56,876 nt of DNA from an uncultured Candidatus Saccharibacteria bacterium (lineage in GTDB: Bacteria; Patescibacteriota; Doudnabacteria; UBA920), in assembly GCA_964556325.1 (NCBI GenBank), contig CAZKVS010000006.1:1-56876 (forward strand). The letters run 5' to 3'. Each line of letters begins with the position of its first letter. Position 1 is the stretch's first letter. The notes below the pieces were generated by a model that saw only the letters and a list, made by a program, of their open reading frames with translations, ran no database searches and was not told the origin of the DNA. The position numbers were made by a program, and so were the translations under genes. Of the stretch, positions 3,501-52,702 are shown one piece after another.

Positions 3501-6036
3501 GGAACTTAAAGACGGGCAGAGTCATATGGTATATATCTATGCTATTAATACTAACTCTGCAGGCTCCAATCCATTGTTGTCTGGTTCGCCAAAGCCCGTA
3601 TCTTGTCCGCCGCCTGTGGCAGTGTGTCCGGATGTGGGGCAAAGCTACGTAGTGGCAGCGGATGCAGTTGTGGCCGTGGGGGATGCTACGCAAGTCTTTG
3701 CACCTAACGGTTGGTCGGCAGGGGATTTTGTATCAAGTAATACATCTATTGCTAAAATAACCAACCCACTCGCCACGAGTGCTACCGTGGCGGCGGTCAA
3801 AAAAGGTATTGTAAGTATTTTTGGAAGTGGCTGGACTGCTCCAAATGGTGCGACGAACTGCAGTCTCGGTCCGATTGATATAACCATTGTTACAAATCCA
3901 ACGGGTCAGTTGAGTGCCACACCGGCTACATATTGTGCCCCCGGCACAACTGGTGTGACGACCATTACAGCCACGGCCAATGTGTATATAGAAGTGCGCA
4001 TAGACGGCGCTGCGGGCCTACCTGACGACACACTACTCTTTACTGTGCCTGCTTTTGCTACCAGAGTTGTTACGACAGGCCCCTGGATAAAGCAAGGGAC
4101 AATCATTCGTCTCGTGGCAGTGCAGGATGGAAACGTGGAAGTGGCTCGTCAAGTTGTGCAGCTGACAGAAAAATGTCCGCCTCCTGGCAGCCCGACGGTG
4201 GATTTAAAAATAGAAAACCCTGATGGAACCACCACTGATGGTCCGGTGACCATTTTGGTTGGGACTTCTGTGCCTTTGGTCTGGACGAGTCAAAACACCA
4301 TTGAGTGTCACGCAGCGTGGACCTCTAGTTCGGCAGTGTCCGGACGGCAGCAGGTAGGGCCATTGCCCACGAGCACGGTATTTACCATTATGTGTACTAA
4401 CGCGGCAGGTGACCAGGTATCGGACAGTGTCATTGTAAATGTGAGGGATTTACCTGTTACAGGTGCGGATTTGTCGGTGAGCAAGGTGGCAAGCGCTTTG
4501 TGCGTAAATCCAGGTAAGCCTTTGAGTTTTAGCATTTTATTAACCAATAATGGTCCTGATAATGCCAACAACGCACTGGTCACAGAAAATTGGTCGGGAC
4601 TTGTAAGTTTTGCCAGTGCGTCTCCGTCGCAAGGTCAATTTAACAGTAGTACGCATGTGTGGACAGTTGGCGCCTTAAATGCCGGCCAGAGCGCTACGTT
4701 GAACATCGTGTTTACCGCGAACGCAACGGGTCCAGGCACAAATGTAGTTGCAGTCAATGTATCTGGCCAACAGGATGGAAATAGTGCAAACAATATTTCT
4801 TCGGTACCGTTTGTAGTGGTCAGTGATTGCGGTCCCACTAACCAACCGCCTACGGTAGATTTAAAGATTAATGGCACCGATGGGACAGTAACGGTGAATA
4901 ACGGCGATACCGCTACTTTGAGTTGGACGAGTGTAAACGCAACTGAGTGTCACGCTCAGGATGGTTGGACAAACAGTACTGCAACTTCCGGTTCCATTCA
5001 GAGTAACCCCGTAACTGCCAATAGAAGTTATGCTATTGTGTGTACTGGTCCCGGCGGTCAAGCGCAAGATATAGTGGCAGTGGCAGTTGCCGGTGGCCCC
5101 GGGGGCGGATCTCCTCCTGGCGGCGGTGGACCTGGGTCCGATATTTACAACACCTCTACTGGTGCGGCAAATGGACTGGTGGTTTCTTGTGGCAGACTAC
5201 TTGTTGCGTGGGACAAGCCGAGCACTGCGGTAGATGGGTTTAGATTGTATTACTTTAATGCTGACATTGGTAACTGGATTCGTTTTATGGAAGTTCCGCT
5301 TGGTTCAGCTGATGTGCTACCTGGTGGAAGGTATGGTTTAGAGTTTACCCCACCGGTGCAGCAAAAGTTGTTCCGATATCGAGTGTACAGCTATCTTGGC
5401 GCGCAAGAGTATGTACCAGGAGCAGATGCGGCTGGGTCACCTATTGCGGCAGATTATCCATGCGACTCAGATTTAAGTCCTTCAAACAAAGACATTATTA
5501 AAATCCGCGGGATTGTTATGGATAATAATCCATTGCAAGGCCAAGATCCGCGTCCCAATCGGCACCCGAATATTAGTGATGCAACTCCGTTAGTGGAAGG
5601 CGATAAGTTGGAGTTTGCGGTGAATCTGGTTAACGGCGGACAAAAAGAGATTACTACTCCTATTACTGTAGATGACGTGCTTATGAACTTAGTACCAGCA
5701 CGTCTTACTACAGTGCCACTGGACGGGTTCGATATTGCTCTATCGTGCCAGACTGCGGCGGTAAAGCAGTGTACTGCAGATATAAAGTATTATCCTTTGA
5801 ATAGCAGGCTGGCAATTATAGTAAAGCCAATCGCCGGTCAAGGTTTGGCTGCCTTGGGTAAAGAAGCCTGGATCATTACCTTCACTGCTAAGGCTCAGGC
5901 TGCACCTGAGTTACGGGGTAAGCCGTTTCGAGTACAGAATAAAGCCTATGTAAATGGTTTAACCACCGATTTGCTTATTACCCCTAAAATTTTGGTTCTG
6001 CCCATTGGCGCGCCAACAATTCAAGAAATACAATAG
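544..6036 (+). CDS. giant secreted surface protein with proline-rich linkers, an internal ~770-aa duplication, Ig/PKD-like modules and DUF11-like repeats
   Basis: 1830-aa ORF with an N-terminal hydrophobic segment (FGFALLALFVLSG) and a PPPPGPNPPPPPPDNEPPPPPTP linker. The block starting VPTGNFEAASCDSFSGWAFDPD (nt ~964) is repeated at PPVGSFDAVNCTAMSGWAFDPD (nt ~3275). There are three PTVDLKI modules (nt ~1876, ~4190, ~4850). NNGPD-type DUF11 signatures are present (ITATNNGPDQATNV, LLTNNGPDNANNA). The protein is rich in Cys. Confidence 0.85.
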   Translation: MVRFLNLKQSAKVVQSILANEGFRLSLFGFALLALFVLSGQKQIAIAQDSGCPPRHSITVDGTWTSPDFGPFCNYGSVQCEAGYHLSGCSVPTQTGPGTCSVSCVCTADNYSCGEPPPPGPNPPPPPPDNEPPPPPTPIDRVPTGNFEAASCDSFSGWAFDPDTPSQSIAVHVYKDGPPGVFSGGFTANISRPDVNAAFGITGNHGFVISPVPDQFKDGLPHSVYIYAINTDPNGQNVLIGGSPKSIPACPTPPVCPPSNAYSVALADAVVRAGQTTTAFAPSGWVGGTFSSSNTGVATVATSLNNGTGSVRGISPGQADISGVGWTASNGATGCAIGPTTVTVTAAVTGTLSATAPNICSPATAGTSTVTASANTYAEVRVDNAEGLPNNTFFFAVSAFETKTVQTGAWAKAGTVFRLVAPFDNNVELTLKVVGSTSNCPANNPTVDLKIINQDGTLTDGPVTIPIGTATRLQWVSQNTTSCRAVWTTSTATAGAQATQPLFTATTFTITCTGTNGQEVSDSVTVNVKDTPASGVDISISKIADKICATRTDSVTFTITATNNGPDQATNVVLVDAFDSPPFQYSEANVSQGLYDNTQGGAWKVGTLNAGATATLTLVLKPTFGNLGMASNTVSLRSVTQSENNSNNNQAQAFVEIKNSCTINPPPPPPNDKSVDISVTTGTDTECVTLNGEVVYTTRVKNLGLDAATAVTVGVIKAGNGLTYKSANPSQGAFSYANSSGGTWTVGALASGAEATLQFVATGTSLGTAGFTFAAGSVVPTDVDVSNNQASKSINISQNCAGPGTPSGVISADPNPCLIAENQNTCTSNVTWNTQNVTKALVFVSLNGGPESLFGNSVSCANADCPAGFITTQPDYYDFNLYDYSSGSRGVLLDTVRVTGKRAVVPPTDKPPVGSFDAVNCTAMSGWAFDPDSPSASIQVHVYRDGAAGAGGILVGGYATTVLRQDVNDAYQLTGTHGFSISPIPAELKDGQSHMVYIYAINTNSAGSNPLLSGSPKPVSCPPPVAVCPDVGQSYVVAADAVVAVGDATQVFAPNGWSAGDFVSSNTSIAKITNPLATSATVAAVKKGIVSIFGSGWTAPNGATNCSLGPIDITIVTNPTGQLSATPATYCAPGTTGVTTITATANVYIEVRIDGAAGLPDDTLLFTVPAFATRVVTTGPWIKQGTIIRLVAVQDGNVEVARQVVQLTEKCPPPGSPTVDLKIENPDGTTTDGPVTILVGTSVPLVWTSQNTIECHAAWTSSSAVSGRQQVGPLPTSTVFTIMCTNAAGDQVSDSVIVNVRDLPVTGADLSVSKVASALCVNPGKPLSFSILLTNNGPDNANNALVTENWSGLVSFASASPSQGQFNSSTHVWTVGALNAGQSATLNIVFTANATGPGTNVVAVNVSGQQDGNSANNISSVPFVVVSDCGPTNQPPTVDLKINGTDGTVTVNNGDTATLSWTSVNATECHAQDGWTNSTATSGSIQSNPVTANRSYAIVCTGPGGQAQDIVAVAVAGGPGGGSPPGGGGPGSDIYNTSTGAANGLVVSCGRLLVAWDKPSTAVDGFRLYYFNADIGNWIRFMEVPLGSADVLPGGRYGLEFTPPVQQKLFRYRVYSYLGAQEYVPGADAAGSPIAADYPCDSDLSPSNKDIIKIRGIVMDNNPLQGQDPRPNRHPNISDATPLVEGDKLEFAVNLVNGGQKEITTPITVDDVLMNLVPARLTTVPLDGFDIALSCQTAAVKQCTADIKYYPLNSRLAIIVKPIAGQGLAALGKEAWIITFTAKAQAAPELRGKPFRVQNKAYVNGLTTDLLITPKILVLPIGAPTIQEIQ

Positions 6037-6082
6037 TCAGTAGTATGCTGTAAGTAGTAGAGTTGTAAGTACATAATCAGGA

Positions 6083-6224
6083 ATATGCCCAGTAGAGCTT
6101 CTTTGCAAGTTTTCTTCTGGCTCGCGGTATTATTAAATAAATGCACAGGCTCACTTTTTTACTAGAAACTCATGAGTGTAAGTAAAAACTTGAGGCCAGA
6201 TGCAAAGAAGTCTTACTTGGTATG
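6083..6224 (+). promoter_or_regulatory. 5' clamp leader, copy 1: conserved 5' arm pairs with the start-codon region of the downstream gene; contains mini-ORF 6085-6165
   Basis: The 5' arm ATATGCCCAGTAGAGCTTCTTTGCA (6083-6107) pairs with TGCAAAGAAGTCTTACTTGGTATG (6201-6224). P2 is 10 bp perfect and P1 is 6 of 7 bp. A CATAAT -10-like box sits at 6072-6077, 7 nt before ATG 6085. Confidence 0.55.
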
Positions 6225-7064
6225 AGAATGCGTTTGATACATGAAGAAAAAGAAGTTGAAGAGCCAGTTGTAGACTCTGAGCTCGGTATAGTTGAGGTAA
6301 GTAACGCCGAACTACTTGCCAGCAACAAGCGCTTGGTTCGAGTGGCGTACTATTCTGCTACTGTGTCGGTTTTGGTGATGATTGCTTTTGTGTGGTTGAG
6401 TAACTACGACTCCCTTGCGTTGGATAGAAGAATGAGTCTCATGCAGGCAGAAGCAACCCGCCAGGTAGATGCTCGCTTGGCCACGCTCTCTGCGGGTGCC
6501 GTGAATCCCAAGCCTCAGCCCAAATATGCTGATATACAAGTGCCGTCAAACGCTCCTCGTTTGGGCGACGCGAATGCCAAAGTAACTATAGTCGAGTTTG
6601 CGGATTTTCAGTGTCCGTACTGCGGTAAGTTTCAGCAAGAGGTATACCCGTTTATTAAACAAGAGTATGTGGACACAGGTAAGGCTTCATTTGTCTATTT
6701 AGATTTTACCTTTTTGGGTGAGGAATCTGAGTCTGCCGCCCAAGCAGCAAAGTGTGCAGGTGAACAAGGAAAGTTTTGGGAGTTCCACGATAAGTTACTT
6801 GAGAGTCAAAAAGGAGAAAATCAGAATGCTTTTGTGGTCTCTAAATTGAAAGGGTTTGCTCGGGGCATTGTGCCTAATACCTTTGTTTTTAACCAATGTC
6901 TGGATTCCAAAAAATATACTCAAGCTGTAGCCGATGAGACAGCGTTAGGCCGTGCGGCGGGCATAGTGGCAACCCCAACTGTCTTAGTAAATGGGAAGCT
7001 AGTGGTAGGGGCGTTGCCGTATGCTGCGTTTAAGCAAGAGATTGAGGCTGCGCTGGCGAAGTAA
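6222..7064 (+). CDS. DsbA-family thiol:disulfide oxidoreductase, membrane-anchored
   Basis: 280 aa with a TM segment (VSVLVMIAFVWLSNY) and a thioredoxin-fold active site (FADFQCPYCGKF, CxxC). The C-terminal part is DsbA-like (GIVATPTVLVNGK). Confidence 0.85.
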   Translation: MRMRLIHEEKEVEEPVVDSELGIVEVSNAELLASNKRLVRVAYYSATVSVLVMIAFVWLSNYDSLALDRRMSLMQAEATRQVDARLATLSAGAVNPKPQPKYADIQVPSNAPRLGDANAKVTIVEFADFQCPYCGKFQQEVYPFIKQEYVDTGKASFVYLDFTFLGEESESAAQAAKCAGEQGKFWEFHDKLLESQKGENQNAFVVSKLKGFARGIVPNTFVFNQCLDSKKYTQAVADETALGRAAGIVATPTVLVNGKLVVGALPYAAFKQEIEAALAK

Positions 7065-7180
7065 TAGTAGAGACTTATCGATATCGGGAGATTTGTGGAG
7101 ACTCGGCGGATAGTGGAATATATTTATTTGCGTCAGTCTCAACCGGTTTCAATGAGTATCTATAAGTATCCAGAGTATTT

Positions 7181-7927
7181 ATGCTTCACGTAAGTTTTTT
7201 TGCGGCTTTTATAGCAGGAATGCTGAGCGTGCTTCCTGCATGTGGGCCGGCACTTTTGCCGGCCTTTTTTGCCTATTCATTTACCCAACCTCGGCGACTA
7301 GTATTGGCGACTGTATTGTTTGCTTTGAGCTTTGGCTTAGTATTTATTCCGTTTGGTTTAGGGGTCGCATGGTTGGCCCAGCTTTTGAGTGCTGAACATG
7401 TTGCCTTAACTCGAATGGTGGGAGTGGTGCTTATAGTTTTTGCGTTTGGTTCTTTGGCGGGGTGGGCTATTCCGCATAGGGAACCTGCGCAGAAAGTTCA
7501 GAAAACAGCCGGTGTATGGCGCGCGGTGGTACTTGGGTTAACCTTTGGGTTTACGGCAAGTAGCTGTATTGCGCCGGTATTGGGTGCCATTATTACTGCC
7601 TCAGTTGGAGAGGGGAATCCGGCGAGTGCGTTTGTACTTCTCGCGTGGTTTGTGGCAGGTATGTTTACTCCATTGCTGGTGCTATCGTATCTTATACAGC
7701 GATATGGTCAGAAGAGGTTGCAAAAATTGTTCCGATGGGGCTTCGAAGTAACTATTGGAAGGAAGATATACAGGTTGTATTGGGCACAAGTCTGCGCTGC
7801 TTTGCTTTTCGGAGGACTAGGCCTCTTGTATGTATTAAATATACCTACTACCTGGTTGGGAGGGTTGACCTCGGGTGGGTTGCAGGATTGGTTTTTTAGG
7901 ATGAACCAGCGATTACTTGGGTACTAG
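7181..7927 (+). CDS. ccdA: cytochrome c biogenesis/DsbD-family transmembrane electron transporter (CcdA-like)
   Basis: 248 aa, polytopic. It has the CcdA-type motifs LSVLPACGPALLPAFF and FGFTASSCIAPVLGAI, with two conserved Cys in TM helices. It is adjacent to the DsbA-like gene. Confidence 0.8.
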   Translation: MLHVSFFAAFIAGMLSVLPACGPALLPAFFAYSFTQPRRLVLATVLFALSFGLVFIPFGLGVAWLAQLLSAEHVALTRMVGVVLIVFAFGSLAGWAIPHREPAQKVQKTAGVWRAVVLGLTFGFTASSCIAPVLGAIITASVGEGNPASAFVLLAWFVAGMFTPLLVLSYLIQRYGQKRLQKLFRWGFEVTIGRKIYRLYWAQVCAALLFGGLGLLYVLNIPTTWLGGLTSGGLQDWFFRMNQRLLGY

Positions 7928-7959
7928 TGGGGCTTCGAGTCGGAAATTGATGTGCGGGA

Positions 7960-7968
7960 TGGTATACT
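7960..7968 (+). promoter_or_regulatory. extended -10 promoter TGgTATACT
   Basis: aTGgTATACTaaatat is followed directly by ATG 7975, 6 nt after the -10. This implies a leaderless transcript start at the clamp mini-ORF. Confidence 0.45.
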
Positions 7969-7972
7969 AAAT

Positions 7973-8111
7973 ATATGCCCGGTAGAGCTTCCTTGTAAGT
8001 TTTTTCTGGCATAACTATTTTTTCCATAAACGTACGGGTCTGATTTCATTGCATAATTTTTTGCTGCAAATGAAACTCGGGGCCTGTTACAAGGAAGTCT
8101 TACCGGGTATG
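7973..8111 (+). promoter_or_regulatory. 5' clamp leader, copy 2: contains 7-codon mini-ORF 7975-7998 (MPGRASL)
   Basis: CCCGGTA (7978-7984) pairs with TACCGGG (8101-8107). CTTCCTTGTAA (7988-7998) pairs with TTACAAGGAAG (8087-8097). G7977/T8108, T7976-A8109 and A7975-T8110 extend the helix through ATG 8109. Confidence 0.6.
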
Positions 8112-8621
8112 AACATGCTCCGTATGTTGTTGGCAGTTGTTCTGCTGAGCGCAGTACTGCCTACGCTTGTTTTTGCACACCCCAACGGTACTTCCTGGGA
8201 GCAGGTTTTTAACCAGTATAAAGTGGATGTAGGATATGACCCGTCGAGTTTTGTAGTAGGCCAGCCGGTGCGTTTGGATTTTAACGTTACGAGGGAGCAA
8301 GGTGGTCAGGATGTAGACTTTGCAGACGTATGGGTGCGAGTGATCCAAGGCGGGACTACTGTATTTGCTACAGGTGTCCATAAACCATCTATTGGTCGTG
8401 CGGGCATGACCTTTACCTTTCCGGCAGCAGGTGCGTATTCTTTAGATGTTCGGTTTGAAAAAGCAGGGGAGTCTATAGTGGATGCAACTTTTCCTATGAC
8501 TGTAAACCCGTTAGCGGTTCCAAAAAAGTCTGTTCAGCCGCTCGTGGTGCTCGCGTGGGCTGGGTGGCCAGTCGCCTTTGTTCTAAGTTTTTATTTTATA
8601 TATAAAAGAAAATCTAAATAG
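8109..8621 (+). CDS. secreted Ig-like domain protein with a C-terminal TM anchor (hypothetical)
   Basis: The start is placed at ATG 8109 by analogy with the other clamp copies; the track ORF starts at a TTG at 8049. The signal peptide MNMLRMLLAVVLLSAVLPTLVFA is followed by HPNG. The C-terminal TM segment is LVVLAWAGWPVAFVLSFYFIY followed by KRKSK. Confidence 0.6.
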   Translation: MNMLRMLLAVVLLSAVLPTLVFAHPNGTSWEQVFNQYKVDVGYDPSSFVVGQPVRLDFNVTREQGGQDVDFADVWVRVIQGGTTVFATGVHKPSIGRAGMTFTFPAAGAYSLDVRFEKAGESIVDATFPMTVNPLAVPKKSVQPLVVLAWAGWPVAFVLSFYFIYKRKSK

Positions 8622-8630
8622 TCTACACGT

Positions 8631-9167
8631 ATGGATAAAAAATATATTGTTGGTTTAGTGTTTGCTGTAGTCTTGCTGGGCTCTGCGGGGGCCGTTGCAG
8701 TGCGCGTGGTGCTACATGGAAGGTCGTCCGTGCCAGTAAAAGGTTTAACGAGCAGCGCTTCTGGGCCGACTTCGAATAATGAACCTAAAACGACTCCAGC
8801 CGTAGAGCAACCGCTCGGAGACTTTGTATTGCCGGTAGAGAAGACTGTTGCTTCGGTGAGTTTGGCAGACGTGCCCAAAGCTATAACTAGCTTGCTCGGA
8901 GACACGAAGGATGCGCGGGCATATAGTGTAGAGTATGCCAATGGTAGTAAAGGGTACCGTGTAGAACGGGACATTGCACAAAGTCTGACTCAAGTTTCGA
9001 GTCGGTGGCAAACTGCTATCCAAACCGCGGATATTTCTGCGCGGAGTAAGGTGTCTGAGGATCAGGCGTTGTATCAAACTCAAAGTGGCGGATATAAAAT
9101 ATTGGTCACTCTTTCCCGCTTAACTACTACTGCCACCGGTCAGTCCGTTGCTGCAATTCCACAATAA
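8631..9167 (+). CDS. hypothetical membrane-anchored protein
   Basis: 178-aa ORF with an N-terminal TM helix (IVGLVFAVVLLGSAGAVAV). No motif recognised. Confidence 0.55.
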   Translation: MDKKYIVGLVFAVVLLGSAGAVAVRVVLHGRSSVPVKGLTSSASGPTSNNEPKTTPAVEQPLGDFVLPVEKTVASVSLADVPKAITSLLGDTKDARAYSVEYANGSKGYRVERDIAQSLTQVSSRWQTAIQTADISARSKVSEDQALYQTQSGGYKILVTLSRLTTTATGQSVAAIPQ

Positions 9168-9256
9168 ACGTTCCACAATTTGATGGGCATCTCCCCGGAG
9201 ATATCTATCAAGTTCGTTGCAAATTACCTCTTAAATAAAAGAGTTTATTGAATATA

Positions 9257-9285
9257 TTGACATTTATACAAGTATATACTATAGT
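9257..9285 (+). promoter_or_regulatory. near-consensus sigma70 promoter TTGACA-17-TATAGT
   Basis: TTGACA at 9257-9262, a 17-nt spacer, and TATAGT at 9280-9285. This lies ~390 nt upstream of ORF 9678. Confidence 0.55.
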
Positions 9286-9291
9286 ATAGGG

Positions 9292-9648
9292 TCACCTGCT
9301 GACCTTTCTAGATGAATACTTTACGCGGCGCAGACGTGCGCAATGATTCGTAAAATATTTGTCCAGGAAGACAAGATAACCTCAACCCTTCCGCACATTT
9401 ACGTGTACTTTTCTATATCCCAGGAGGATATATTTTAGAGAGATTATTGTTTAGTATTGCGGATGGTTTATTTTTGGCCTTGAGTGCAATTGCATGCAAG
9501 CTGTCCGAGAAAAGTAAGAGTGTAAAAGCCTTAAACTTTTACTTTGTTACTTTTCTCGGCAGGTATCTGTGTGTTCCCAACAGCGGGAACTTGCAGTGCG
9601 GCCAAAACCAATCAACCGCGACGCTTTAATCGGCGGCGCGATTTTTTT
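9292..9648 (+). ncRNA. long structured leader or stand-alone ~360-nt RNA (unknown class) ending in an intrinsic terminator
   Basis: An extended hairpin pairs 9505-9517 with 9547-9559 (13 bp perfect) and has an inner 7-bp helix (9522-9528/9536-9542). A terminator-like stem pairs CGCGACGC 9617-9624 with GCGGCGCG 9633-9640 (one A/G mismatch) and is followed by T7 at 9642-9648. No convincing ORF is present. Confidence 0.35.
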
Positions 9649-9677
9649 CAACTTCCAAACCTTTTACAAGGAGAATT

Positions 9678-10718
9678 ATGCTGTCAATGAAAAAATTCGT
9701 GACCGCGATGTTTGCTATCGCGGTTTTGTTATCAACAATGGCGACTTTTGCCTCAGCGCAAGCGACGGAAGAACAGGCGCAAGAACAAGTGCAGCGGCTC
9801 GACGACCATTTTGCTTCAAAGGCGGTGGTGCAACAGCAGTCGTTTGCGATTACGCAATCTGCCGCGGCCAAGGCAAAGATCATTATCACCGGCGGCCCCT
9901 CGGGGACTGTTGTCAACCAGGCATACGCTGCGACGTTTCCGAATCAAGCGCAGCCCTTATTGCTCTCGTTGGAAGGTGGAGTCGGTACGTGCCGTCTGCA
10001 CAACACCTATACCGGCGAAACCTGGTCGAATGTGACTATGCCCAGAGCGTTTGCTCCCACCTTGGACGAGTCAGGAGAAACACTTCTGATTGGCGGGTAC
10101 ATTACCGCCGACTGCGGAAACGGAGCGCAGACAGCTTCGCTGTTTGTTCATTTGTTCAACCGGTTCGGCATGATGGCTGTGTCTGAAGGGGATACGACCA
10201 GCGGTGCAACAGGTTCCTCGAAACGTTTTTATGCGGTGAGTTTCGTTGCAAGTCGCAAGTTTACGTGGACTGCTCCTGGTGGCTCTCCGTCGAGTGGTGT
10301 ATCGGACGAAATTTTCAACGTCTCGTTTCCCACTGGCGGGGTTCGCGATATTGAGACGACGTTCGGTCCGGCACCGGATCGGGGCGGCCATAAGTTTAGC
10401 ACTCGTTTGGCTTTTTATGCCATTGGGTCGTCTGCGCTGTCATTCTCCCGCGATCGAACCGGAATCACGCTTACCGCATCCGAGGAAGCTGATGTTATGG
10501 CCGGTATCCTGACCTTGCAAGTCAGGTACGCGCGTTCCATTCAAACTTTCAACCTGAACGTCCCCGGCGTAACAGCCGGAGAAAAACTTCGGGTTGACTT
10601 ACCCAACAACGCCGAAGCGGCCACCATTGTTGCGACTTACACCACCGACGAAGAATCGCCCTGCACCTGGGCGCGGAAGTTGCCCGCAATGCAACGCCCC
10701 TCCATGCCGGAGCGATAA
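9678..10718 (+). CDS. secreted hypothetical protein (signal peptide; no recognisable domain), possibly horizontally acquired
   Basis: 346 aa. AAGGAGA lies 5 nt upstream of the ATG and is the only strong SD seen in the window. The signal peptide is KKFVTAMFAIAVLLSTMATFASAQA. The region appears GC-rich, with several long spurious ORFs overlapping in other frames. Confidence 0.7.
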   Translation: MLSMKKFVTAMFAIAVLLSTMATFASAQATEEQAQEQVQRLDDHFASKAVVQQQSFAITQSAAAKAKIIITGGPSGTVVNQAYAATFPNQAQPLLLSLEGGVGTCRLHNTYTGETWSNVTMPRAFAPTLDESGETLLIGGYITADCGNGAQTASLFVHLFNRFGMMAVSEGDTTSGATGSSKRFYAVSFVASRKFTWTAPGGSPSSGVSDEIFNVSFPTGGVRDIETTFGPAPDRGGHKFSTRLAFYAIGSSALSFSRDRTGITLTASEEADVMAGILTLQVRYARSIQTFNLNVPGVTAGEKLRVDLPNNAEAATIVATYTTDEESPCTWARKLPAMQRPSMPER

Positions 10719-10914
10719 TTCGTCCCAACGATAACTCTCAATATTCCACCACCCTTACCCGGTGGTAAAAGCCCAGCACAAATAACACACTACTACAATT
10801 GTGTGACCTATCTGTTGCTGGGCTTTTAGGTTGCCTATTTTTAAAATATCGTCTGTAATCGTGATATAATATTACTAATTGGGAGAGAGTGTATTTTAAG
10901 AAACAAATTAGGCT

Positions 10915-11451
10915 ATGAAAAAACAATACATTTTTTTTGCTGTACTCATGGTCGTGCTAGTGCTTGTGGGGACGAAGTTGGTTATAGATTCTCGTAGTTC
11001 AGAACAAGCAGCGGAACCGGTCGTAGAACATCAAGAGCCTGTAAATACAGTTACCAACCAACCGCCGAAAGACCAAAACTCAGTTAAAAAAGGTATACGT
11101 CGGTTTGTGTTTGCTTCCGCGGATAAAACTATTACCGGTGATGGTTCTATAACCCTTAAAGACACACTTACTTCGGTTGGTTTGAGGCTTATTACAGCAC
11201 CCAAACCACCTACCGGTATGGTCTATGAGGCATACTTAGTTACGGGTACACAGCCTGCCGTGTTTATGGGTGAGTTAAAAGAAGTAACTACAAAAAGTCA
11301 AAAATACCTATGGGCGGGTCCGGGTTTGTTGGATTGGTACAAGGCAGACAAGGTTGTAGTAACCAAACGTAAGCCTGTTGATCCGCGACCGGGGCAAATT
11401 GTAGTTGAAGCCAAGATTAGTGTGGAAGAGTTTTTCACACAGCCTAAGTAG
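10915..11451 (+). CDS. hypothetical membrane-anchored protein
   Basis: 178-aa ORF with an N-terminal TM helix (IFFAVLMVVLVLVGTKLVI). It lies directly upstream of the second giant gene. Confidence 0.55.
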   Translation: MKKQYIFFAVLMVVLVLVGTKLVIDSRSSEQAAEPVVEHQEPVNTVTNQPPKDQNSVKKGIRRFVFASADKTITGDGSITLKDTLTSVGLRLITAPKPPTGMVYEAYLVTGTQPAVFMGELKEVTTKSQKYLWAGPGLLDWYKADKVVVTKRKPVDPRPGQIVVEAKISVEEFFTQPK

Positions 11452-11460
11452 TGAGTAAGT

Positions 11461-14400
11461 ATGGTTAAAAGGTTCTCGTTTTTGAATATATTGAGTGGTG
11501 TACTAACAAGCAAGGCAGGATTGTTTGTGGTGGCCTTTGTAGCGGCTATTTTCCTGGCTCAGGTTCCTGTGTTTGTCCACACTGTTCAAGCCGCGCCGGG
11601 AAGTCCTCAAAGTTTAACCTGCGGGGCGACTTTTAATGGCAGCAATGGAAGGTGGGACGTTACCGCAAGCTGGTCGTTTGTGCATAATCCAACGCCCTGG
11701 CCTTATGGTACAAATTATTTTTTGGGTATATCAGGACATGGGGATGGTACTATGACGGGTGTGGACGAATCAGGTACCGCCAGCTTTAGTTTTTTGGGTA
11801 GTGCTGGTCCGTTTACCGCTTCGATTACAAATTGGGAGGCACTAGAAGAAATTACCGCCGATTGTGGTGGTGGCACGCCTCCAACACCTCCGACAGTCAC
11901 TTTGAGTGCGTCTCCCACGTCGGGGGTGTATCCAACGTTTGCCGGTTTAAGTTGGAGCACTACAAACAACCCTACTAGTTGTACTGCAGGAGGGGATTGG
12001 TCAGGTAGTAAATCAATTTCCGGTGGAAGCGAGACTGTGGGATACCCTTCCGCGGGCCACCATGATTACACTATTTCTTGCACTAATGATGGAGGCACTG
12101 CCAATGCCAGCGCGAGTATAGATATTAGCGCGCCGGGCCCTGCGGTAACGTTGACCGCCACGCCAAATCCGGTTACGTATAATGCAACCACGACGCTTGG
12201 CTGGAGCTCGGATTACACCTCGGAGTGTGTTGCAACCCAAGGACCTGGTTTTTCTACCGGTTCAGGTTCGCCCACTACGGGGTCAGATACCTCTACGGCT
12301 TTAACTTCCGCTGCTACTTTTACCGTTTTTTGCGATGGTCCGCAAGGTTCGGTAAGCGACACCCAAGTGGTAAATGTGCAACCGCACTGTACGAGTAGTG
12401 CGGCTGCTACGCCAACTGTTTCTATCGCAGCCGGAACTCAATATGTGTACGCATACGGAGTAGTGAACGCAACTTCCGTATCGTTTCCTACCTGGGGTGA
12501 TGTAAACGCTCAAGACGACATTATTTGGTACGCCGGAACTAATATAGGCGGGGGAACATGGCGTGCGACGGTAAATTTAAATAGTCATAGCCCGGGTAAC
12601 CCTGAATATGGCAACATAAATACACATGTGTATATGAGCGGGTCTGGGTACACGAACACCTGGTGTGGTACGGCCAACTTTACACTTAATTCATCTCCGG
12701 TTGTTGCGCAAATATACACTCGTGTATCCGGTACAACTCCTTGGCTTAAGAGCGTAGTAGTTGCTCCCGGAACGCAGGTGGATTATATGTGGACTTCTGC
12801 CGGTGGCTCTTCATATTCTTCTACTTACACTGCTAATCCTTTAGCGACGTATTGTGGCAGTGTGCCTCCCACGGGTGGGTGGATTGCCAATAGTAGTTCG
12901 GGTACAAGTTTAAATAATACGACTCAAGCTTGTCAAAATGGTATTGTATTCACTCTCTTGTACTCCGTGAATGGCGGCGCGGCAACGGATAGCGTGACGG
13001 TTACAGTCAATAGTACCGGTGCTATTCCTGCAGGGTCTTTAACGCTGAGTCAAACGCCAAATTGTACCGTAACCCCACCCGCTACAACGTGTGACCCGAT
13101 TCCAACGGTGAATTGGATAACCACTAATACAGTATATTCTCAGGTTTTGGTGAGCGTAAATGGCGGGGCAGACTCACTCTTTAACGCGGGTTGTGCTGCG
13201 AGCGGCGGCCCACTTGATCGTACGGTGGCCTCGGGTGAAACGCATGCATTTAAGCTGTATGCGGCGCCTAACTGTTTTGATTCGCCGGGCGGCTCTTTAA
13301 CCGGTGATATTACCGTACTTTGGGACTCCGCAAACGGCGCCGTACCATCCGGTTGGACGTGTATTTCTTGTAATCCTGGAGATGCGTATTACCATTATTT
13401 CCTGAGAGGGGATGCTACGGCCGGCACAACCGGGGGGAGTGATACGGGCTCTCATACTTTGACTTACCAATCGGCAACTTCGGGGGCTACCACGTTGGCT
13501 CCGTCTGGTTCAAATGCTGCGGGCGGCTCTCACGCGCATTCTTGGCCAAATTTAGCTACGACAACGGACAGCATTGTTCCCGCGTACAAGCAATTGCAAC
13601 TAATCAAGCGAACCAATCCACCGTATATCCCGGCAAACGCCATAGCGTTGTTTGAGGCCTCTGTCCCGTCGGGCTGGACTCGGTATTCTAGCCTAGATGG
13701 GCTGTATCTGCGCGGAGGGGAGAATAACGCTACCGGTGGGAGTTCGACGCATGCGCATACCACCATTGCTAATGTGTCCGGTGGGCCGAGCGGTGGGAGT
13801 GCGGGCGGTAGTGGTAGTGGTAGAATTCCCGCAAGTAACTTCCATACGCATTCGCTTGATGCCACAGGTTTGAGCGCGAGCAATAATAGTCCGCCGTATG
13901 TGCAAGTGGTGTTTGGGAAAATTTCTGCAAACGGTCCGGCGCCGGCAGGTATGGTTGCTTTCTTTGATGGTAGTGTGCCCACTGGATGGTCTTGTGTTTC
14001 CTGCGCAGCCGGAGATGTGTATTATCAGCGACTATTGGTTGGGGCGGCAAACTTTGGTTCGACAGGTGGTGTGGCCACACATGATCATGGCGGTGGTTTG
14101 GTTATTACGAGCGGCGGTCCGAGTATGACCACCTCTACGGGTTCGACTTCTGGTAGCAGTCCGGCAAGTAGCAGTCATGCGCATGCTGTAACGTATACTG
14201 TGGGCTCTCAAAGCAGCTGGCCGGCTTATAAGACAATAAAGCTTGGACGATACACTGCGTTTACATTGCTCGACACCAAGAGCGTAACTGGAGTGACTGC
14301 TGCGTCTCCGGCTATTTTGATTTCCTCTAACAAAGATGTAGTTGAGGTGGATGGTGAAGATGTGCCTTTTGTCTATAATGATTCCGTGGCCACCGCGAAT

Positions 14401-14901
14401 ATTGCAGACTCTGTAGGTGAAGGTAGTATTGTTAAGTTCGCTATTCATATTCGCAACACTGGCCCGGGTATGGTGAGCAGTGATTTTGTCGTGGAGGATA
14501 CTATTGCTAACCTGGTTAAAAATACAACCGACTGGGGTGCGCAAATTTATTGCAATGATACTGGTTTGACAATACCGTGTGATATTTCAGAATACGAGCT
14601 TCTGACTCCGGTACCATACGATTCTGTCACTGGCAAAATTACTTTTACCATTCAGAACAACGGAGGTAAGTTGGGGAACGGAGACTTTATTAGTTTAGTG
14701 TATTCTGCTAAAACGCAGGGCGCCACCGGTACAAGCTCTTCCATCTTCCGGTTTAAGAATGAAGCAAAAATTATCTATACGGACCCCGTGAACGGCGCAA
14801 GTTTTGTAGACTGTTCAAGCGGAGGCTCTACCTGTCCGCTGAGGACGCCGGCGGTGTTGTTCTTCCGTGATTTATCTATTCCATTCTTGCAGGAACGTTA
14901 A
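11461..14901 (+). CDS. giant secreted protein: Ig-like modules, three tail-collar (MdpB)-like repeats, C-terminal DUF11-like domain
   Basis: 1146 aa with a signal/TM segment (LFVVAFVAAIFLAQVPVFVHTVQA). Three repeats carry VPSGWT / VPSGWTRY / VPTGWSC followed by Gly-rich HxH segments (GGSHAHSW, SSTHAHTT, ATHDHGG, SSHAHAV) and PxY..hh tails (VPAYKQLQLIK, PPYVQVVFGKI, WPAYKTIKLGRY). The C-terminal part resembles the C-terminus of ORF 544-6036. Confidence 0.8.
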   Translation: MVKRFSFLNILSGVLTSKAGLFVVAFVAAIFLAQVPVFVHTVQAAPGSPQSLTCGATFNGSNGRWDVTASWSFVHNPTPWPYGTNYFLGISGHGDGTMTGVDESGTASFSFLGSAGPFTASITNWEALEEITADCGGGTPPTPPTVTLSASPTSGVYPTFAGLSWSTTNNPTSCTAGGDWSGSKSISGGSETVGYPSAGHHDYTISCTNDGGTANASASIDISAPGPAVTLTATPNPVTYNATTTLGWSSDYTSECVATQGPGFSTGSGSPTTGSDTSTALTSAATFTVFCDGPQGSVSDTQVVNVQPHCTSSAAATPTVSIAAGTQYVYAYGVVNATSVSFPTWGDVNAQDDIIWYAGTNIGGGTWRATVNLNSHSPGNPEYGNINTHVYMSGSGYTNTWCGTANFTLNSSPVVAQIYTRVSGTTPWLKSVVVAPGTQVDYMWTSAGGSSYSSTYTANPLATYCGSVPPTGGWIANSSSGTSLNNTTQACQNGIVFTLLYSVNGGAATDSVTVTVNSTGAIPAGSLTLSQTPNCTVTPPATTCDPIPTVNWITTNTVYSQVLVSVNGGADSLFNAGCAASGGPLDRTVASGETHAFKLYAAPNCFDSPGGSLTGDITVLWDSANGAVPSGWTCISCNPGDAYYHYFLRGDATAGTTGGSDTGSHTLTYQSATSGATTLAPSGSNAAGGSHAHSWPNLATTTDSIVPAYKQLQLIKRTNPPYIPANAIALFEASVPSGWTRYSSLDGLYLRGGENNATGGSSTHAHTTIANVSGGPSGGSAGGSGSGRIPASNFHTHSLDATGLSASNNSPPYVQVVFGKISANGPAPAGMVAFFDGSVPTGWSCVSCAAGDVYYQRLLVGAANFGSTGGVATHDHGGGLVITSGGPSMTTSTGSTSGSSPASSSHAHAVTYTVGSQSSWPAYKTIKLGRYTAFTLLDTKSVTGVTAASPAILISSNKDVVEVDGEDVPFVYNDSVATANIADSVGEGSIVKFAIHIRNTGPGMVSSDFVVEDTIANLVKNTTDWGAQIYCNDTGLTIPCDISEYELLTPVPYDSVTGKITFTIQNNGGKLGNGDFISLVYSAKTQGATGTSSSIFRFKNEAKIIYTDPVNGASFVDCSSGGSTCPLRTPAVLFFRDLSIPFLQER

Positions 14902-14980
14902 GCGGCTCGGGACACTAAGGGCTCGGGAACCATAACACCTCGTAATTGCAACGGCGGGGGTAATTTTGTATACTTATCAC

Positions 14981-15122
14981 ATATGTTCGGTAGAGCTTCT
15001 TCACACAGTGAGTGTTTTATAACGTGTGTGAGCGGATTTTTATCGGACTAAATTATTGAATAATTACCTCTATTTGTTCGCAAGTCAGGTAGAACAAATG
15101 CGAAGAAGTCTTACCGGGTATG
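14981..15122 (+). promoter_or_regulatory. 5' clamp leader, copy 3: contains mini-ORF 14983-15051; encloses the gatC start
   Basis: TTCGGTA (14986-14992) pairs with TACCGGG (15112-15118) using two U-G wobbles that work only on the + strand RNA. CTTCTTC (14996-15002) pairs with GAAGAAG (15102-15108). TATACT at 14969-14974 lies 8 nt before ATG 14983. Confidence 0.55.
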
Positions 15123-15401
15123 TTAACCAAAGAAGAAGTAGCAAAAGTGGCTGTTTTGGCTAGGATTAGCTTGACGGAAGCTGAGGTGGAAAAGTTTCAG
15201 CATGACCTTTCCGCTGTTTTAGACTATGTGGCAGAGCTAAACCAGGTGAATATAGACGGAGTAGAAGAAGTATCACAAGTAACGGGACTGGTGAATGTGC
15301 AACGAGACGATGTAGCCGTGGTGTTTGAAGACCTGCAGGCTATAACTAGCCAAGCGCCGGAAACGAAAGATGGCTACTATAAGGTAAAAGCAATACTGTA
15401 A
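15120..15401 (+). CDS. gatC: Asp/Glu-tRNA(Asn/Gln) amidotransferase subunit C
   Basis: 93 aa with a typical GatC sequence (VAKVAVLARISLTEAEVEKFQHDLSAVLDYV). It is followed by gatA and gatB. Confidence 0.9.
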   Translation: MLTKEEVAKVAVLARISLTEAEVEKFQHDLSAVLDYVAELNQVNIDGVEEVSQVTGLVNVQRDDVAVVFEDLQAITSQAPETKDGYYKVKAIL

Positions 15402-15403
15402 AG

Positions 15404-15491
15404 AATTTCCAATACCCAATTACTAATTTCCAATGTCAGAAAATGGATATTGGACATTTCATTGGAAATTGGGTATTAGAAATTGGAAATT
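15404..15491. repeat. word hairpin, family TTCCAAT/AATTACC (gatC-gatA spacer)
   Basis: AATTTCCAATG (15425-15435) pairs with CATTGGAAATT (15460-15470). The flanking arms are built from the same words. The family recurs at 52617-52690 and inside gatB (~17335-17372). Confidence 0.7.
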
Positions 15492-15500
15492 TGTTGTTTT

Positions 15501-16988
15501 ATGGATTTTGAACATTTAGAACTTCACGAATTACGGGAAAAATTAGATAAGAAAGAAATAACTTCAGTCGAACTGACTGAGTATTTTTTGGCACGTATAG
15601 AAAAGTTGAACCCTGCATTAAATGCCTTTGTTACAGTAGTTCGAGAAGAGGCTTTAGAGCAGGCCCGCAGAGCGGATGAATATATTAGTTCTCCAGGAGA
15701 AAACCCTCCCTTATGCGGAATCCCTTTTGCGGCTAAAGATTTATTTTGTACGGTAGGCATTCGAACGACTGCAAGTTCAAAAATTTTGGATCAGTACAAG
15801 CCACCCTATGACGCCACTGTCATTGCAAAGCTCAAAGAACAAAAAGCAGTCCTTGTTGGAAAAACTAATCTAGACCAATTTGCTCATGGGTCTTCCACCG
15901 AAACTTCTGCGTATGGTCCCACCAAAAACCCCTGGGATGCAACCCGTATTCCGGGTGGGTCTTCGGGTGGTAGTGCGGCCGCAGTTGCAGCAGGTCTCGT
16001 GCCGTGGGCGCTTGGTACAGAAACTGGTGGCAGCATTCGCCAGCCATCAAGCTTGTGTGGTATTTCGGGTTGGAAACCAACGTATGGTCGGGTAAGTCGA
16101 CATGGGGTTATTGCCATGGCTTCGAGCTTGGATAGTCCGGGTGCGCATGCAAAATCGGTGGCAGATTTAATAACTTTGGCTAACGTTATAGCTGGCCCTG
16201 ACCCCAAGGACTCTACTACGGGCGACCATCCTGTTCACTATTCACTGTCCACTGTTCACTCTCTTTCCGGTTTGCGCATTGGTATTCCCAAAGAATATTT
16301 TCCGGAGGGCCTCCAAGACGAGGTAAAGCAACGAGTCATGGAAGCAACAGAGGAACTGCGAAAGCTCGGTGCTGAATTAGTAGAAGTAGAATTGCCTCAC
16401 ACCAAGTACGGTTCTCTCGTATATGCTATTGTAGCGCCGGCGGAAATTGCCTCCAATTTGTCTCGGTACGACGGTATTCGATATGGTCACGTAACTAGTG
16501 ACGCAAAAAATTTGTTAGAGGTGTACGAGAAATCTCGATCGGAAGGTTTTGGCGACGAAGCCAAGCGACGTATTATGACGGGTACCTATGTACTTTCTGC
16601 AGGGTATTATGATGCATATTATAAACGGGCACAAAAAGTGCGACGGCTCATTATAAACGAGTTTGCTGAAGTGTTTAAACAAGTTGATGTGCTCGTTGCT
16701 CCATCGAGCCCGACAGTAGCAAATACGCTTGGTAAGGCTGCAGATGATCCTTTGTTTGGATATATTGCAGACCAGTTGAATATTCCGTCTTCGCTCGCTG
16801 GGTTACCTGCCTTGTCTGTTCCGTGTGGTTTTGCAAAACCGCTGGAAGGAAATCAACCATCCTTAGATGGTATGCCCGTGGGTTTGCAGATAATTGGTCC
16901 GCAATGGAGTGAGCAGAAAGTGTTCGATGTTGGTCTTGCGTATCAGTCCGCTACTGAGTGGCATACGAAACATCCGAATTTGGAATAA
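15501..16988 (+). CDS. gatA: Asp/Glu-tRNA(Asn/Gln) amidotransferase subunit A
   Basis: Amidase signature GGSSGGSAAAVAAG, plus KDLFCTVGIRTTASSKIL. The start is taken at ATG 15501; the track ORF begins at a TTG inside the hairpin. Confidence 0.92.
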   Translation: MDFEHLELHELREKLDKKEITSVELTEYFLARIEKLNPALNAFVTVVREEALEQARRADEYISSPGENPPLCGIPFAAKDLFCTVGIRTTASSKILDQYKPPYDATVIAKLKEQKAVLVGKTNLDQFAHGSSTETSAYGPTKNPWDATRIPGGSSGGSAAAVAAGLVPWALGTETGGSIRQPSSLCGISGWKPTYGRVSRHGVIAMASSLDSPGAHAKSVADLITLANVIAGPDPKDSTTGDHPVHYSLSTVHSLSGLRIGIPKEYFPEGLQDEVKQRVMEATEELRKLGAELVEVELPHTKYGSLVYAIVAPAEIASNLSRYDGIRYGHVTSDAKNLLEVYEKSRSEGFGDEAKRRIMTGTYVLSAGYYDAYYKRAQKVRRLIINEFAEVFKQVDVLVAPSSPTVANTLGKAADDPLFGYIADQLNIPSSLAGLPALSVPCGFAKPLEGNQPSLDGMPVGLQIIGPQWSEQKVFDVGLAYQSATEWHTKHPNLE

Positions 16989-30833: not shown

Positions 30834-30836
30834 AAA

Positions 30837-30884
30837 GTGTACAGTGAACAGTGAAAATAATGATTGCGTCTGTTCACTGTACAC
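30837..30884. repeat. word hairpin, family CAGTGAACAG/CTGTTCACTG (PBP2-folD spacer)
   Basis: GTGTACAGTGAACAG (30837-30851) is the exact reverse complement of CTGTTCACTGTACAC (30870-30884). Confidence 0.8.
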
Positions 30885-30899
30885 TGTAAACTGTACTCT

Positions 30900-35240: not shown

Positions 35241-35317
35241 TTATTCAGTTACTAACCGTTATACGACCTACTTTAAAGCCGTGGAGATTCTTTTCTTGAC
35301 GCTTGGCGTCTTATGAG

Positions 35318-35425
35318 AGATACCAATATACTAATGGTACTAATGAAACGAATAAATACTAATTCTTTCTTAGCACGCATTAGTAAACATTAGTATCATT
35401 CGTACAGATTAGTATATTGGTATCT
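35318..35425. repeat. empty copy of the AGATACCAATATAC-terminated hairpin element (MITE-like)
   Basis: AGATACCAATATACTAAT (35318-35335) is the exact reverse complement of ATTAGTATATTGGTATCT (35408-35425). The termini and an internal 17-mer (CATTAGTATCATTCGTA) are identical to the element carrying the GxxExxY gene at 38099-38570. Confidence 0.75.
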
Positions 35426-38097: not shown

Positions 38098-38098
38098 C

Positions 38099-38570: not shown

Positions 38571-38590
38571 ATTATATTTAGGACTATCTA

Positions 38591-43683: not shown

Positions 43684-43724
43684 TGACTTTCCTGTACACT
43701 TTTCACTGTTCACTTTCCACTATC

Positions 43725-52606: not shown

Positions 52607-52616
52607 TATAATTTTC

Positions 52617-52690
52617 AATTACCAATTTCTAATTTCCAATGAAATATCCAATTTCTAAAGGCTATTTCATTACATTAGAAATTGGTAATT
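52617..52690. repeat. 17-bp perfect inverted repeat, family AATTACCAATTTCTAAT (prmC-prfA spacer)
   Basis: AATTACCAATTTCTAAT (52617-52633) is the exact reverse complement of ATTAGAAATTGGTAATT (52674-52690). Confidence 0.85.
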
Positions 52691-52702
52691 AGGTATTGGG
52701 AA

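Follow-up and report, generated by a model that had tools for sequence, protein, structure and literature searches.

The window analyzed here is a 56,876-nt stretch of DNA (contig CAZKVS010000006.1 of assembly GCA_964556325.1). It is an ordinary piece of core chromosome from the candidate phyla radiation (CPR), with genes for aminoacyl-tRNA synthetases, gatCAB, mreBC, PBP2, DNA polymerase III, RF1 and RRF. Three copies of a short hairpin-forming unit lie on its plus strand, each ending at the start codon of a gene. Copy 1 (positions 6083 to 6224) is upstream of a dsbA-like gene (6222 to 7064), copy 2 (7973 to 8111) is upstream of an open reading frame (ORF) for an Ig-like secreted protein (8109 to 8621, ORF8109 below), and copy 3 (14981 to 15122) is upstream of gatC (15120 to 15401); in comparisons with other genomes these copies are called W1, W2 and W3. 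An earlier reading of the sequence, referred to here as the original prediction, had described the three intervals as a clamp leader in which a promoter-proximal 5′ arm pairs with the start codon region of the downstream gene. The intervals and the arm sequences were all correct as read, and a covariance model built from 12 copies recovered exactly the same three intervals in the window. As had also been pointed out, two of the copies adjoin giant genes, copy 1 following a DUF11 gene of 1830 aa and copy 3 following a gene of 1146 aa.

In copy 1, the 5′ arm (6084 to 6107) contains an ATG at 6085 to 6087, hereafter the 5′ ATG, and a GAG at 6095 to 6097. The interior spans 6108 to 6200, and the 3′ arm (6201 to 6224) contains a TCT at 6211 to 6213 and ends with the ATG of the gene itself, the main ATG, at 6222 to 6224. 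The same parts were assigned in copy 2 (5′ ATG, 7975 to 7977; 5′ arm, 7974 to 7997; GAG, 7985 to 7987; interior, 7998 to 8087; 3′ arm, 8088 to 8111; TCT, 8098 to 8100; main ATG, 8109 to 8111) and in copy 3 (5′ ATG, 14983 to 14985; 5′ arm, 14982 to 15005; GAG, 14993 to 14995; interior, 15006 to 15098; 3′ arm, 15099 to 15122; TCT, 15109 to 15111; main ATG, 15120 to 15122). The arms of the window copies read ATATG-YYCRGTA-GAG-CTTCYT at the 5′ end and RGAAG-TCT-TACYKGG-TATG at the 3′ end, and a two-block pattern (GTAGAGCTTC-N95-115-GAAGTCTTAC) was matched 3 times in the window, compared with 0.00 matches expected from 100 shuffles. The interiors measure 90 to 93 nt in the window and 88 to 103 nt over the 12 aligned copies, the aligned units being 137 to 152 nt long. 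The claim that only the ends are shared was upheld by pairwise identities between interiors, which were at the level of shuffled sequence (57 ± 3%) with the exception of orthologues. No match to the interiors was seen elsewhere in the window or in the related DNA compared.

Further copies were found in other genomes, the sequences of which are given L numbers here. A scan of one genome per species returned twelve matches, comprising six true full-arm copies and six chance matches inside unrelated genes. Three of the true copies belong to Candidatus Doudnabacteria nzgw381 (L001, L005 and L009) and one to nzgw382 (L010), and one each was found in two metagenome-assembled genomes (MAGs) labeled Saccharibacteria (L006 and L012). 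GatC/GatA of both “Saccharibacteria” MAGs matched those of the window at about 81%, as close as the Doudnabacteria MAGs. One true copy (L028) was present among 19 matches in a scan of Joint Genome Institute (JGI) metagenomes, while searches based on GatC orthology provided unbiased copies in strains of the same species (L032 to L039) and in a relative with 89% GatC identity (L040/L041). Copy 3 has its orthologues in L032 to L041 and in L005. The genes downstream of the unit elsewhere are alaS and gatC in nzgw381, hisS in the CAZCTL MAG, a gene for a 287-aa secreted protein in the CAZYMS MAG, and one other gene each in nzgw382 and L028. In the species of the window, the dsbA-like and gatC sites are occupied by the unit, and ORF8109 is occupied in one strain. 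The unit lies exactly at the start codon at eight of the nine loci, the exception being L009. A fuzzy search for more diverged copies found none, and no copies were present among the viral contigs, plasmids and phages searched. The unit is therefore described below as a low-copy family of noncoding hairpin insertions of about 134 nt in a narrow CPR lineage, namely, MAGs labeled Candidatus Doudnabacteria and their close relatives.

Two of these copies are irregular. L009 (6174 to 6322) is not at a start codon; 73 nt separate it from the gene downstream, which is served by a TATACT promoter of its own. It carries ATT in place of the 5′ ATG and C-A mismatches in the outer part of the helix (P1), and a minus-strand ORF (5734 to 6279) would begin inside it. 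The copy seems to be in decay, with nothing at its site to maintain it. L010 (7620 to 7790) is rearranged on its 5′ side, where another partial arm (CCCAGTAGAGCTCT...) stands between ATGCCCGGTAGA and GGGTAGAGCTTCTTTGCC. This adds approximately 37 nt at the helix center, through partial duplication in tandem or through a nested event.

The -10 boxes of the original prediction were found at the positions it gave, all on the plus strand. The 5′ ATG of copy 1 lies 7 nt after a -10-like box, CATAAT (6072 to 6077), which has no good -35; that of copy 2 lies 6 nt after an extended -10, TGgTATACT (7960 to 7968); and that of copy 3 lies 8 nt after the -10 (14969 to 14974) of a promoter-like TTGCAA-17-TATACT (14946 to 14974). 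In relatives, the box tttGTATACT also precedes leaderless gatC. Over all copies, a good -10 box stands 6 to 8 nt upstream of the 5′ ATG at 6 of 9 loci. The layout of an occupied site can be written as a -10 box, 6 to 8 nt, an ATG, CCCRGTA-GAG-CTTCTTTGCA, about 90 to 100 variable nt, TGCAAAGAAG-TCT-TACYGGG-T and the ATG of the gene, and that of an empty site as a -10 box, 6 to 7 nt and the ATG of the gene. The unit itself supplies no promoter. A promoter scan found none in the 3′ arm, where TCTTAC and CTTACT either lack the key -11A/-7T or lie 4 to 5 nt from the ATG, and an internal promoter that would make the main ATG a +1 was excluded on these grounds. No terminator-like site was found inside the units. 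Few genes in the window have a Shine-Dalgarno sequence, and several have a -10 box just before the ATG (for example, gaTATACTaaattatATG at 47385). Shine-Dalgarno-like sequences were seen upstream of the genes at 9678 (ttttacAAGGAGaattATG) and 10915, and the genome mixes Shine-Dalgarno-led and leaderless starts.

Mini-ORFs open at the 5′ ATGs as had been predicted. That of copy 1 (6085 to 6165; 26 aa, MPSRASL..., MPSRASLQVFFWLAVLLNKCTGSLFY) starts at the putative +1, that of copy 2 (7975 to 7998) encodes MPGRASL with a TAA stop at 7996 to 7998, and that of copy 3 (14983 to 15051) encodes 22 aa (MFGRASS..., MFGRASSHSECFITCVSGFLSD); all are on the plus strand. In the 11 aligned copies with a 5′ ATG, the exception being the ATT of L009, the 5′ arm coincides with mini-ORF codons 1 to 8. 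The strand that sequesters the main start is the same stretch of codons in these 11 copies, a trait of leader-ORF coupling. The mini-ORFs span 7 to 39 codons, and the peptide is not conserved between copies; the L040 orthologue of the copy 3 mini-ORF is of equal length and differs in 11 codons, 8 of them non-synonymously. A conserved mini-peptide or toxin was excluded from the 7- to 39-aa range and from this comparison of W3 with L040. The distance from ATG to ATG is 132 to 147 nt, in all three phases and with stops between, which excludes a read-through fusion of mini-ORF and gene.

Each window copy was predicted to fold with its ends closing the structure, with minimum free energies of -40 to -53 kcal/mol and z-scores of -3.4 to -6.5. 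When the 12 copies were aligned, 23 pairs joined the two ends (columns 2 to 25 with 131 to 154), and 95.3% of the cells were paired, compared with 37 to 48% after the partner columns had been slid by 1 to 3. Two-sided changes were observed at five pairs, as in CCCAGTA/TACTGGG versus CCGAGTA/TACTCAG versus CCCGGTA/TACCGGG. RNAalifold recovered the closing helix only, with nothing conserved within it. The helix takes in the 5′ AUG, which pairs with the U, A and U around the main AUG, and the energy of the duplex ranges from -23 to -36 kcal/mol. The GAG and TCT had been described as a conserved internal loop. Their conserved position was borne out, and the loop was not: the center consists of a conserved G.U pair, an A-C mismatch and another G.U pair, midway in a continuous helix of about 24 bp. 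An absence of further copies and an absence of arm covariation in relatives had been named in the original prediction as evidence against it; both further copies and arm covariation were seen.

The pairing is specific to the sense strand. Where a position is not a Watson-Crick pair, the sense strand has G.U and the opposite strand would have C-A, and G.U is conserved at three positions. The third base of the 5′ AUG (G3) is always paired as G.U with the U preceding the main AUG, and in intact copies this pair is never A-U or G-C. Among close strains the gatC copy has three arm substitutions, all of C to U opposite G (variants CCCGGTA, CTCGGTA and TTCGGTA, and GAGC to GAGT), and in L040 a central G.U has become A-U. 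The plus strand of the 12 source copies scored 90 to 127 bits with the covariance model (56 bits for the rearranged L010) and the minus strand 22 to 56 bits, the plus/minus values being 109.6/38.3 for copy 1, 110.5/49.2 for copy 2 and 127.5/32.1 for copy 3. The plus strand folded better than the minus strand in 10 of 12 copies, and the orientation relative to the downstream gene is identical at 9 of 9 loci. The originally described helix enclosing a real start codon, with changes compensated on the sense strand only, therefore holds and extends to relatives. Judged from the sequences, the sense-only pairing and the shared orientation indicate RNA-level selection after insertion. Because of the sense-strand wobbles, the wobble-preserving substitutions and the orientation bias, the helix evidently matters on the RNA and not just as protein-binding DNA ends.

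Occupied and empty alleles were found at three loci. Copy 2 is missing from the same-species strains L032 and L033, in which alignment places a clean gap at plus-strand positions 7978 to 8111 (equivalently, 7975 to 8108), that is, 134 nt with ATG at both borders, between flanking blocks 94 to 99% identical to the window. The empty allele is ggTATACTaaatacATGaac (TATACT-aaatac-ATG-gene, in the context ...gatggTATACTaaatacATGaacatgctc...), the occupied allele of the window is ...gatggTATACTaaatatATG[cccgg...ccgggt]ATGaacatgctc..., and the extended -10 is identical in both. Outgroup homologues of ORF8109 have a different gene order, lie directly behind another gene and carry no unit, and they do not polarize the event; a look-up of the exact ORF8109 protein of the window returned no record. 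The gatC site is occupied in the window species including L032 to L039, in L040/L041 and in nzgw381 (L005/L052), and it is empty in L042, L043, L044/L045 (nzgw382), L046/L047, L048 and L050/L051, all of which have (ttt)GTATACT or TATAAT, 6 nt and ATG-gatC. GatC plus GatA identity to the window is 83% for L042, 81% for L043 and 81% for L044, which are empty, and 80% for L005, which is occupied; the distribution is therefore patchy and not clade-wise. The interiors of the occupied gatC copies resemble each other (81% for W3 and L040 and 67 to 71% for W3 and L005, against the null of 57 ± 3%), from which a single origin of these copies was deduced. Upstream of alaS, nzgw381 (L001) has TATTAT-atttac-ATG[unit]ATG-alaS, while the empty sites read TATTAT-atatagc-ATG in L055 (AlaRS identity, 87%) and TATTAT-acctac-ATG in L056 to L058 (83%). 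The CAZCTL, CAZYMS and nzgw382 genomes have empty gatC sites, though they carry the unit at other genes. The dsbA-like gene of nzgw382 has an upstream gap of 102 nt in which the covariance model found no copy. Many further GatC homologues have in-frame N-terminal extensions ending in “..YNxxM” or “MYTxxM”; such an extension is a mis-called, translated -10 box plus 6 nt plus ATG and marks an empty leaderless site.

At the ATG of leaderless genes, the unit has been acquired or lost as a whole, with the ATG duplicated on both sides; this ATG repeat is either a true target-site duplication or part of the unit. Because of the block gain or loss and the presence at different genes in different genomes, we infer that the unit is, or recently was, mobile. 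Among the options listed in the original prediction, the third, that of a mobile hairpin ending in imperfect inverted repeats, has direct support from the occupied and empty alleles at three loci. The other two, opening by translation of the mini-ORF and RNase III processing, act at the RNA level and are compatible with mobility. A regulatory clamp leader as such did not emerge from the analysis. The unit is not the conserved leader of any gene, as these genes are expressed in most relatives from mRNAs that are simply leaderless.

We lean, with modest confidence, toward a hairpin insertion resembling both a miniature inverted-repeat transposable element (MITE) and an intervening sequence (IVS), specialized on leaderless starts and with its helix under RNA-level selection. 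Insertion would shift the real AUG from the 5′ end to a position about 135 to 150 nt downstream, where it would be buried in a duplex. Since gatC, alaS and hisS are essential, expression must persist despite the insert. Our first choice for the route, held tentatively and by analogy, is removal at the RNA level by RNase III. A two-turn helix is the minimal substrate of this enzyme, and the closing helix, as such a substrate, could keep the gene expressible: cleavage by RNase III at the non-Watson-Crick motif in the center would discard the insert, and the mRNA would be left with a 5′ end about 10 to 13 nt before the AUG. The gene for RNase III, rnc, is kept in at least 90% of CPR genomes, along with RNase J and PNPase (PMC12641178), and in Correia elements RNase III cleaves the inverted-repeat hairpins of a small mobile element within 5′ leaders (PMC2649163). 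Copies at start codons would be held in place, as imprecise deletion or a helix-breaking mutation would damage the gene, while copies away from start codons would decay, e.g., L009. The site specificity could reflect real targeting or a selection filter, which are not mutually exclusive. A targeting mechanism could recognize YATG beside a -10 box, or else the open complex with its melted DNA. With a filter, any insertion at another ATG would either kill a gene or be neutral and quickly lost, and at a leaderless start the unit would become “addictive”; the decay of L009 fits such a filter.

Several observations weigh against this interpretation. No transposase or integrase was found among the ORFs of the window, no longer element with matching ends was found in the window or among the viral contigs, plasmids and phages, and copy number is low, the covariance model having found nothing extra either in the window or across about 300 kb of related loci. 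Unrelated interiors are unusual for a MITE family and, in the case of copy 2, for a recent transposition. Gain and loss both fit every locus. The empty allele of copy 2 has CATG where the occupied allele has TATG on both sides, requiring an extra substitution under any model. At 3 of 9 loci there is no well-placed -10, transcription starts being placed from -10 spacing alone. The invariance of the ten-base cores is partly ascertainment in the seven copies that were found with the pattern; among the unbiased copies (W1 to W3, L032, L039 and L040), L032 and L040 each have one core change. The helix center of L010 is interrupted by about 37 nt, yet an ORF still follows. As to RNase III, its product would be a short leader lacking a Shine-Dalgarno sequence and not a leaderless mRNA, and the processing leaves the retained 5′ ATG and its G.U partner unexplained.

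The retained 5′ ATG is better accommodated by our second choice, which may apply with or without mobility and which we consider rather unlikely: a translational clamp opened by the leaderless mini-ORF. A 70S ribosome would load on the 5′-terminal AUG before the 3′ arm, about 110 nt later, is synthesized; translation of the first 8 codons would keep the 5′ arm single-stranded and the real AUG free; and once ribosomes leave, the helix would close and silence both starts. This is consistent with a 5′ ATG kept 6 to 8 nt from the -10 box in the old orthologous gatC copies W3, L040 and L005 and with a 5′ arm that lies wholly within codons 1 to 8 of every mini-ORF. The G3.U(-1) pair, never strengthened, fits selection for an AUG codon and a weak, breathing helix end, and the near-constant interior of 88 to 103 nt could set the timing delay. 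However, pairing with the real AUG already dictates the A and U of the 5′ AUG, and neither the length of the mini-ORF (7 to 39 codons) nor its stop position, its frame relative to the gene or its peptide is conserved. No suitably spaced Shine-Dalgarno sequence precedes the real AUG, a duplex of -23 to -36 kcal/mol should re-form directly behind the ribosome, and arm sequence conservation and the central G.U/A-C/G.U motif would be left unexplained. A further route, and the least probable of the readings weighed here, is an initiation shunt, in which the 5′ AUG, acting as a leaderless start, recruits a 70S ribosome carrying initiator tRNA and the P-site tRNA re-pairs with the real AUG across the foot of the hairpin. 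The helix would set the real AUG against the 5′ end with the AUGs partly paired, and the insert of about 130 nt would be neither unwound nor translated.

Two further readings were weighed. In one, which we consider improbable, the unit is a purely selfish DNA element, its helix a by-product of a transposase that needs like ends, and copies at start codons are merely tolerated while lowering expression somewhat. Inverted ends, a 3-bp direct repeat (ATG), small size, a lack of coding capacity and presence/absence polymorphism are all expected of such an element, and at gatC the divergence of the 5′ arm (W3 and L040 differ at 6 of 25 positions) is similar to that of the interior (19%). Yet the ends are never exact inverted repeats, the differences always being G for A on the sense strand, and the arm substitutions among strains all preserve wobbles. 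A single orientation at 9 of 9 loci would not be expected from DNA-only insertion at the near-palindromic YATG, and the presence of the unit at the essential genes gatC, alaS and hisS implies that expression must be maintained. In the other reading, which we regard as very improbable, the unit is a folded single-strand recombination site, of the attC type or a substrate of another hairpin-recognizing recombinase or of an HUH transposase. The ends would be protein-binding boxes, the center a variable loop and the strand asymmetry that of the recombinogenic strand. Two short conserved boxes, a mismatched spacer, a variable center and strand-specific folding would be accounted for, and the total length of the unit falls inside the attC range of 57 to 141 nt. 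When the unit is read as inserted 3′ of the host ATG with a terminal TATG of its own, it also resembles an IS200/IS605-type insertion without duplication. The cores, however, are CCCRGTA/TACYGGG and not RYYYAAC/GTTRRRY, the 57-kb window contains no integrase or Y1 transposase, and the ends have no conserved separate subterminal hairpins. The hairpin alone is gained or lost, not a gene plus site, and the genes between copies include the housekeeping gatCAB. Nor would a recombination site explain why the position of the unit is fixed to the transcription start and start codon.

If the favored interpretation is correct, the family provides a natural experiment on rebuilding a 5′-end-dependent start behind a structured leader of about 135 to 150 nt, the possible routes being RNase III “excision without ligation,” mini-ORF opening or something more exotic. 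The tolerance of inserts at the essential gatC, alaS and hisS of minimal CPR genomes would mean that RNA-level rescue is built into the element, and the question would be raised of what recognizes the transcription start or start codon as a target, or whether selection alone acts as the filter. Should the shunt prove real, a mobile element would survive at start codons by being skipped at initiation. In practical terms, gene callers mis-start or extend ORFs at unit sites, and the covariance model can flag them.

A number of other features were observed in the window and its relatives. Periodic low-complexity repeats, often hairpins, with units of the CAGTGAACAGTGAACAGTG type or the AATTTCCAATxCCCAATTAC type, occur between genes (15404 to 15509, 16230 to 16260, 17337 to 17371, 30829 to 30899, 43691 to 43721, 52184 to 52214, 52610 to 52708 and 53773 to 53849) and look like a genome-wide terminator or spacer family. 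A small PD-(D/E)XK nuclease gene (PF13366; 38134 to 38529) lies between inverted repeats of 25 to 52 nt with 88 to 92% complementarity (38094 to 38118 with 38551 to 38575 and 35312 to 35363 with 38525 to 38576), which suggests a small selfish gene cassette. Between gatA and gatB, several relatives have a small gene for a “23S rRNA intervening-sequence protein” (PF05635; L040, 2169 to 2531; L046, 11884 to 12231; L048, 11884 to 12252; L050, 12049 to 12282) that the window lacks at that place, a further presence/absence polymorphism in the same operon. The gatA ORF (15483 to 16988) is called from TTG 15483; since its homologues begin MN(F/Y)EHLEL, translation probably starts at the ATG some 20 nt further on. 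The last 41 bases of the window (56836 to 56876) belong to the 5′ portion of a tRNA gene (GCCGTTTTAGCTCAGTTGGTAGAGCATCTCC...) that runs off the window end, and ARAGORN is accordingly silent on it. Its D arm, GGTAGAGC, gave a one-mismatch match to the 5′-arm core.

The unit was compared with known classes of structured RNA and mobile DNA. Rfam 15 gave no match at the gathering score over the whole window and none at an E value of ≤10 on positions 5900 to 15400. With no Rfam match and no conserved interior core, a curated cis-regulatory RNA (riboswitch, T-box or r-protein leader) was excluded. A T-box or other tRNA-sensing leader had been considered for gatC, alaS and hisS, and it was excluded because the dsbA-like and secreted-protein genes carry the unit too. 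A tRNA-like element for RNase P or RNase Z, suggested by the D-arm-like GGTAGAGC and a P1 of 7 bp, was excluded as well: ARAGORN finds nothing, the outer (P1) and inner (P2) segments form one continuous helix, and there is no equivalent of a T arm. An integron cassette array with attC sites was excluded by the different cores, by the lack of an integrase in the window and by an indel that consists of the hairpin alone. As for IS200/IS605 elements, the fixed ATG in front of the unit and the TATG at its end would fit, yet the ends are mutually inverted and there are no conserved subterminal hairpins.

The traits of a MITE that are present are imperfect terminal inverted repeats of 23 to 24 nt, small size, no coding capacity for a transposase, a flanking ATG repeat and single-ATG empty sites at three loci. 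The trait that is missing is a large number of copies alike over their whole length, the window having 3 in 57 kb with unrelated interiors. Correia elements are about 100 to 160 bp long, with inverted ends of about 25 nt, and form a co-transcribed hairpin that is bound or cleaved by RNase III (PMC2649163); these and other bacterial MITEs have been reviewed (PMC2229807 and PMC10969869). Like the Correia elements (CREE/NEMIS) of Neisseria, the unit is noncoding, has inverted ends and a short direct repeat, is present or absent between strains and stands 5′ of genes. Unlike the unit, CREE are present at 100 to 250 per genome and are alike throughout. Their target is TA at nearly any position, the inside of genes included, and they may bring promoters and an IHF site with them. 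The unit, in contrast, is low-copy and flanked by ATG, has unrelated interiors, is found in one orientation and lies at the start codon at 8 of 9 loci. Its identity as a Correia element was excluded, given copies with a CATG left flank that have no TA duplication, the lack of a conserved core and the CPR host.

The IVSs of 23S and 16S rRNA are sporadic hairpin insertions of about 100 to 200 nt, the stems of which are cut by RNase III with no re-ligation; stems are conserved, loops are variable, and the host RNA still works. The unit is likewise a sporadic hairpin insertion with a long conserved stem. It differs from IVSs, which lie in rRNA helices, in that all its copies are upstream of protein-coding genes, and we know of no IVS analogue described for start codons. 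Rickettsia palindromic elements survive inside functional genes, where they keep the reading frame and are translated along with the protein. The unit shares with them the character of a small palindromic mobile element in a reduced genome with an insertion compatible with expression, and it differs in preceding the coding sequence and having no conserved frame.

For the events at the ribosome, the comparison was extended to MS2 coat/replicase pairing, cauliflower mosaic virus 35S shunting, bypassing in T4 gene 60 and the “byps” of mitochondria, which are also mobile hairpin-like inserts. As in those systems, a stable structure has a start or landing codon at its 3′ foot and is either preceded by a short ORF or enclosed by identical take-off and landing codons (here AUG...AUG). 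Those systems differ from the unit in acting on elongating or scanning ribosomes, and to our knowledge none has been described for 70S initiation on a leaderless 5′ end. The initiation shunt, if it exists, would be the initiation counterpart of T4 gene 60 or mitochondrial “byp” bypassing, or of the caulimovirus shunt. In the searchable literature, no description was found of an element with its niche at the +1/ATG of leaderless genes. Small hairpin-forming mobile elements and leaderless mRNAs are both known, and what is new is the niche at the leaderless start codon. By class, we place the unit, a small hairpin-forming insertion element, between MITEs and the intervening sequences excised by RNase III.

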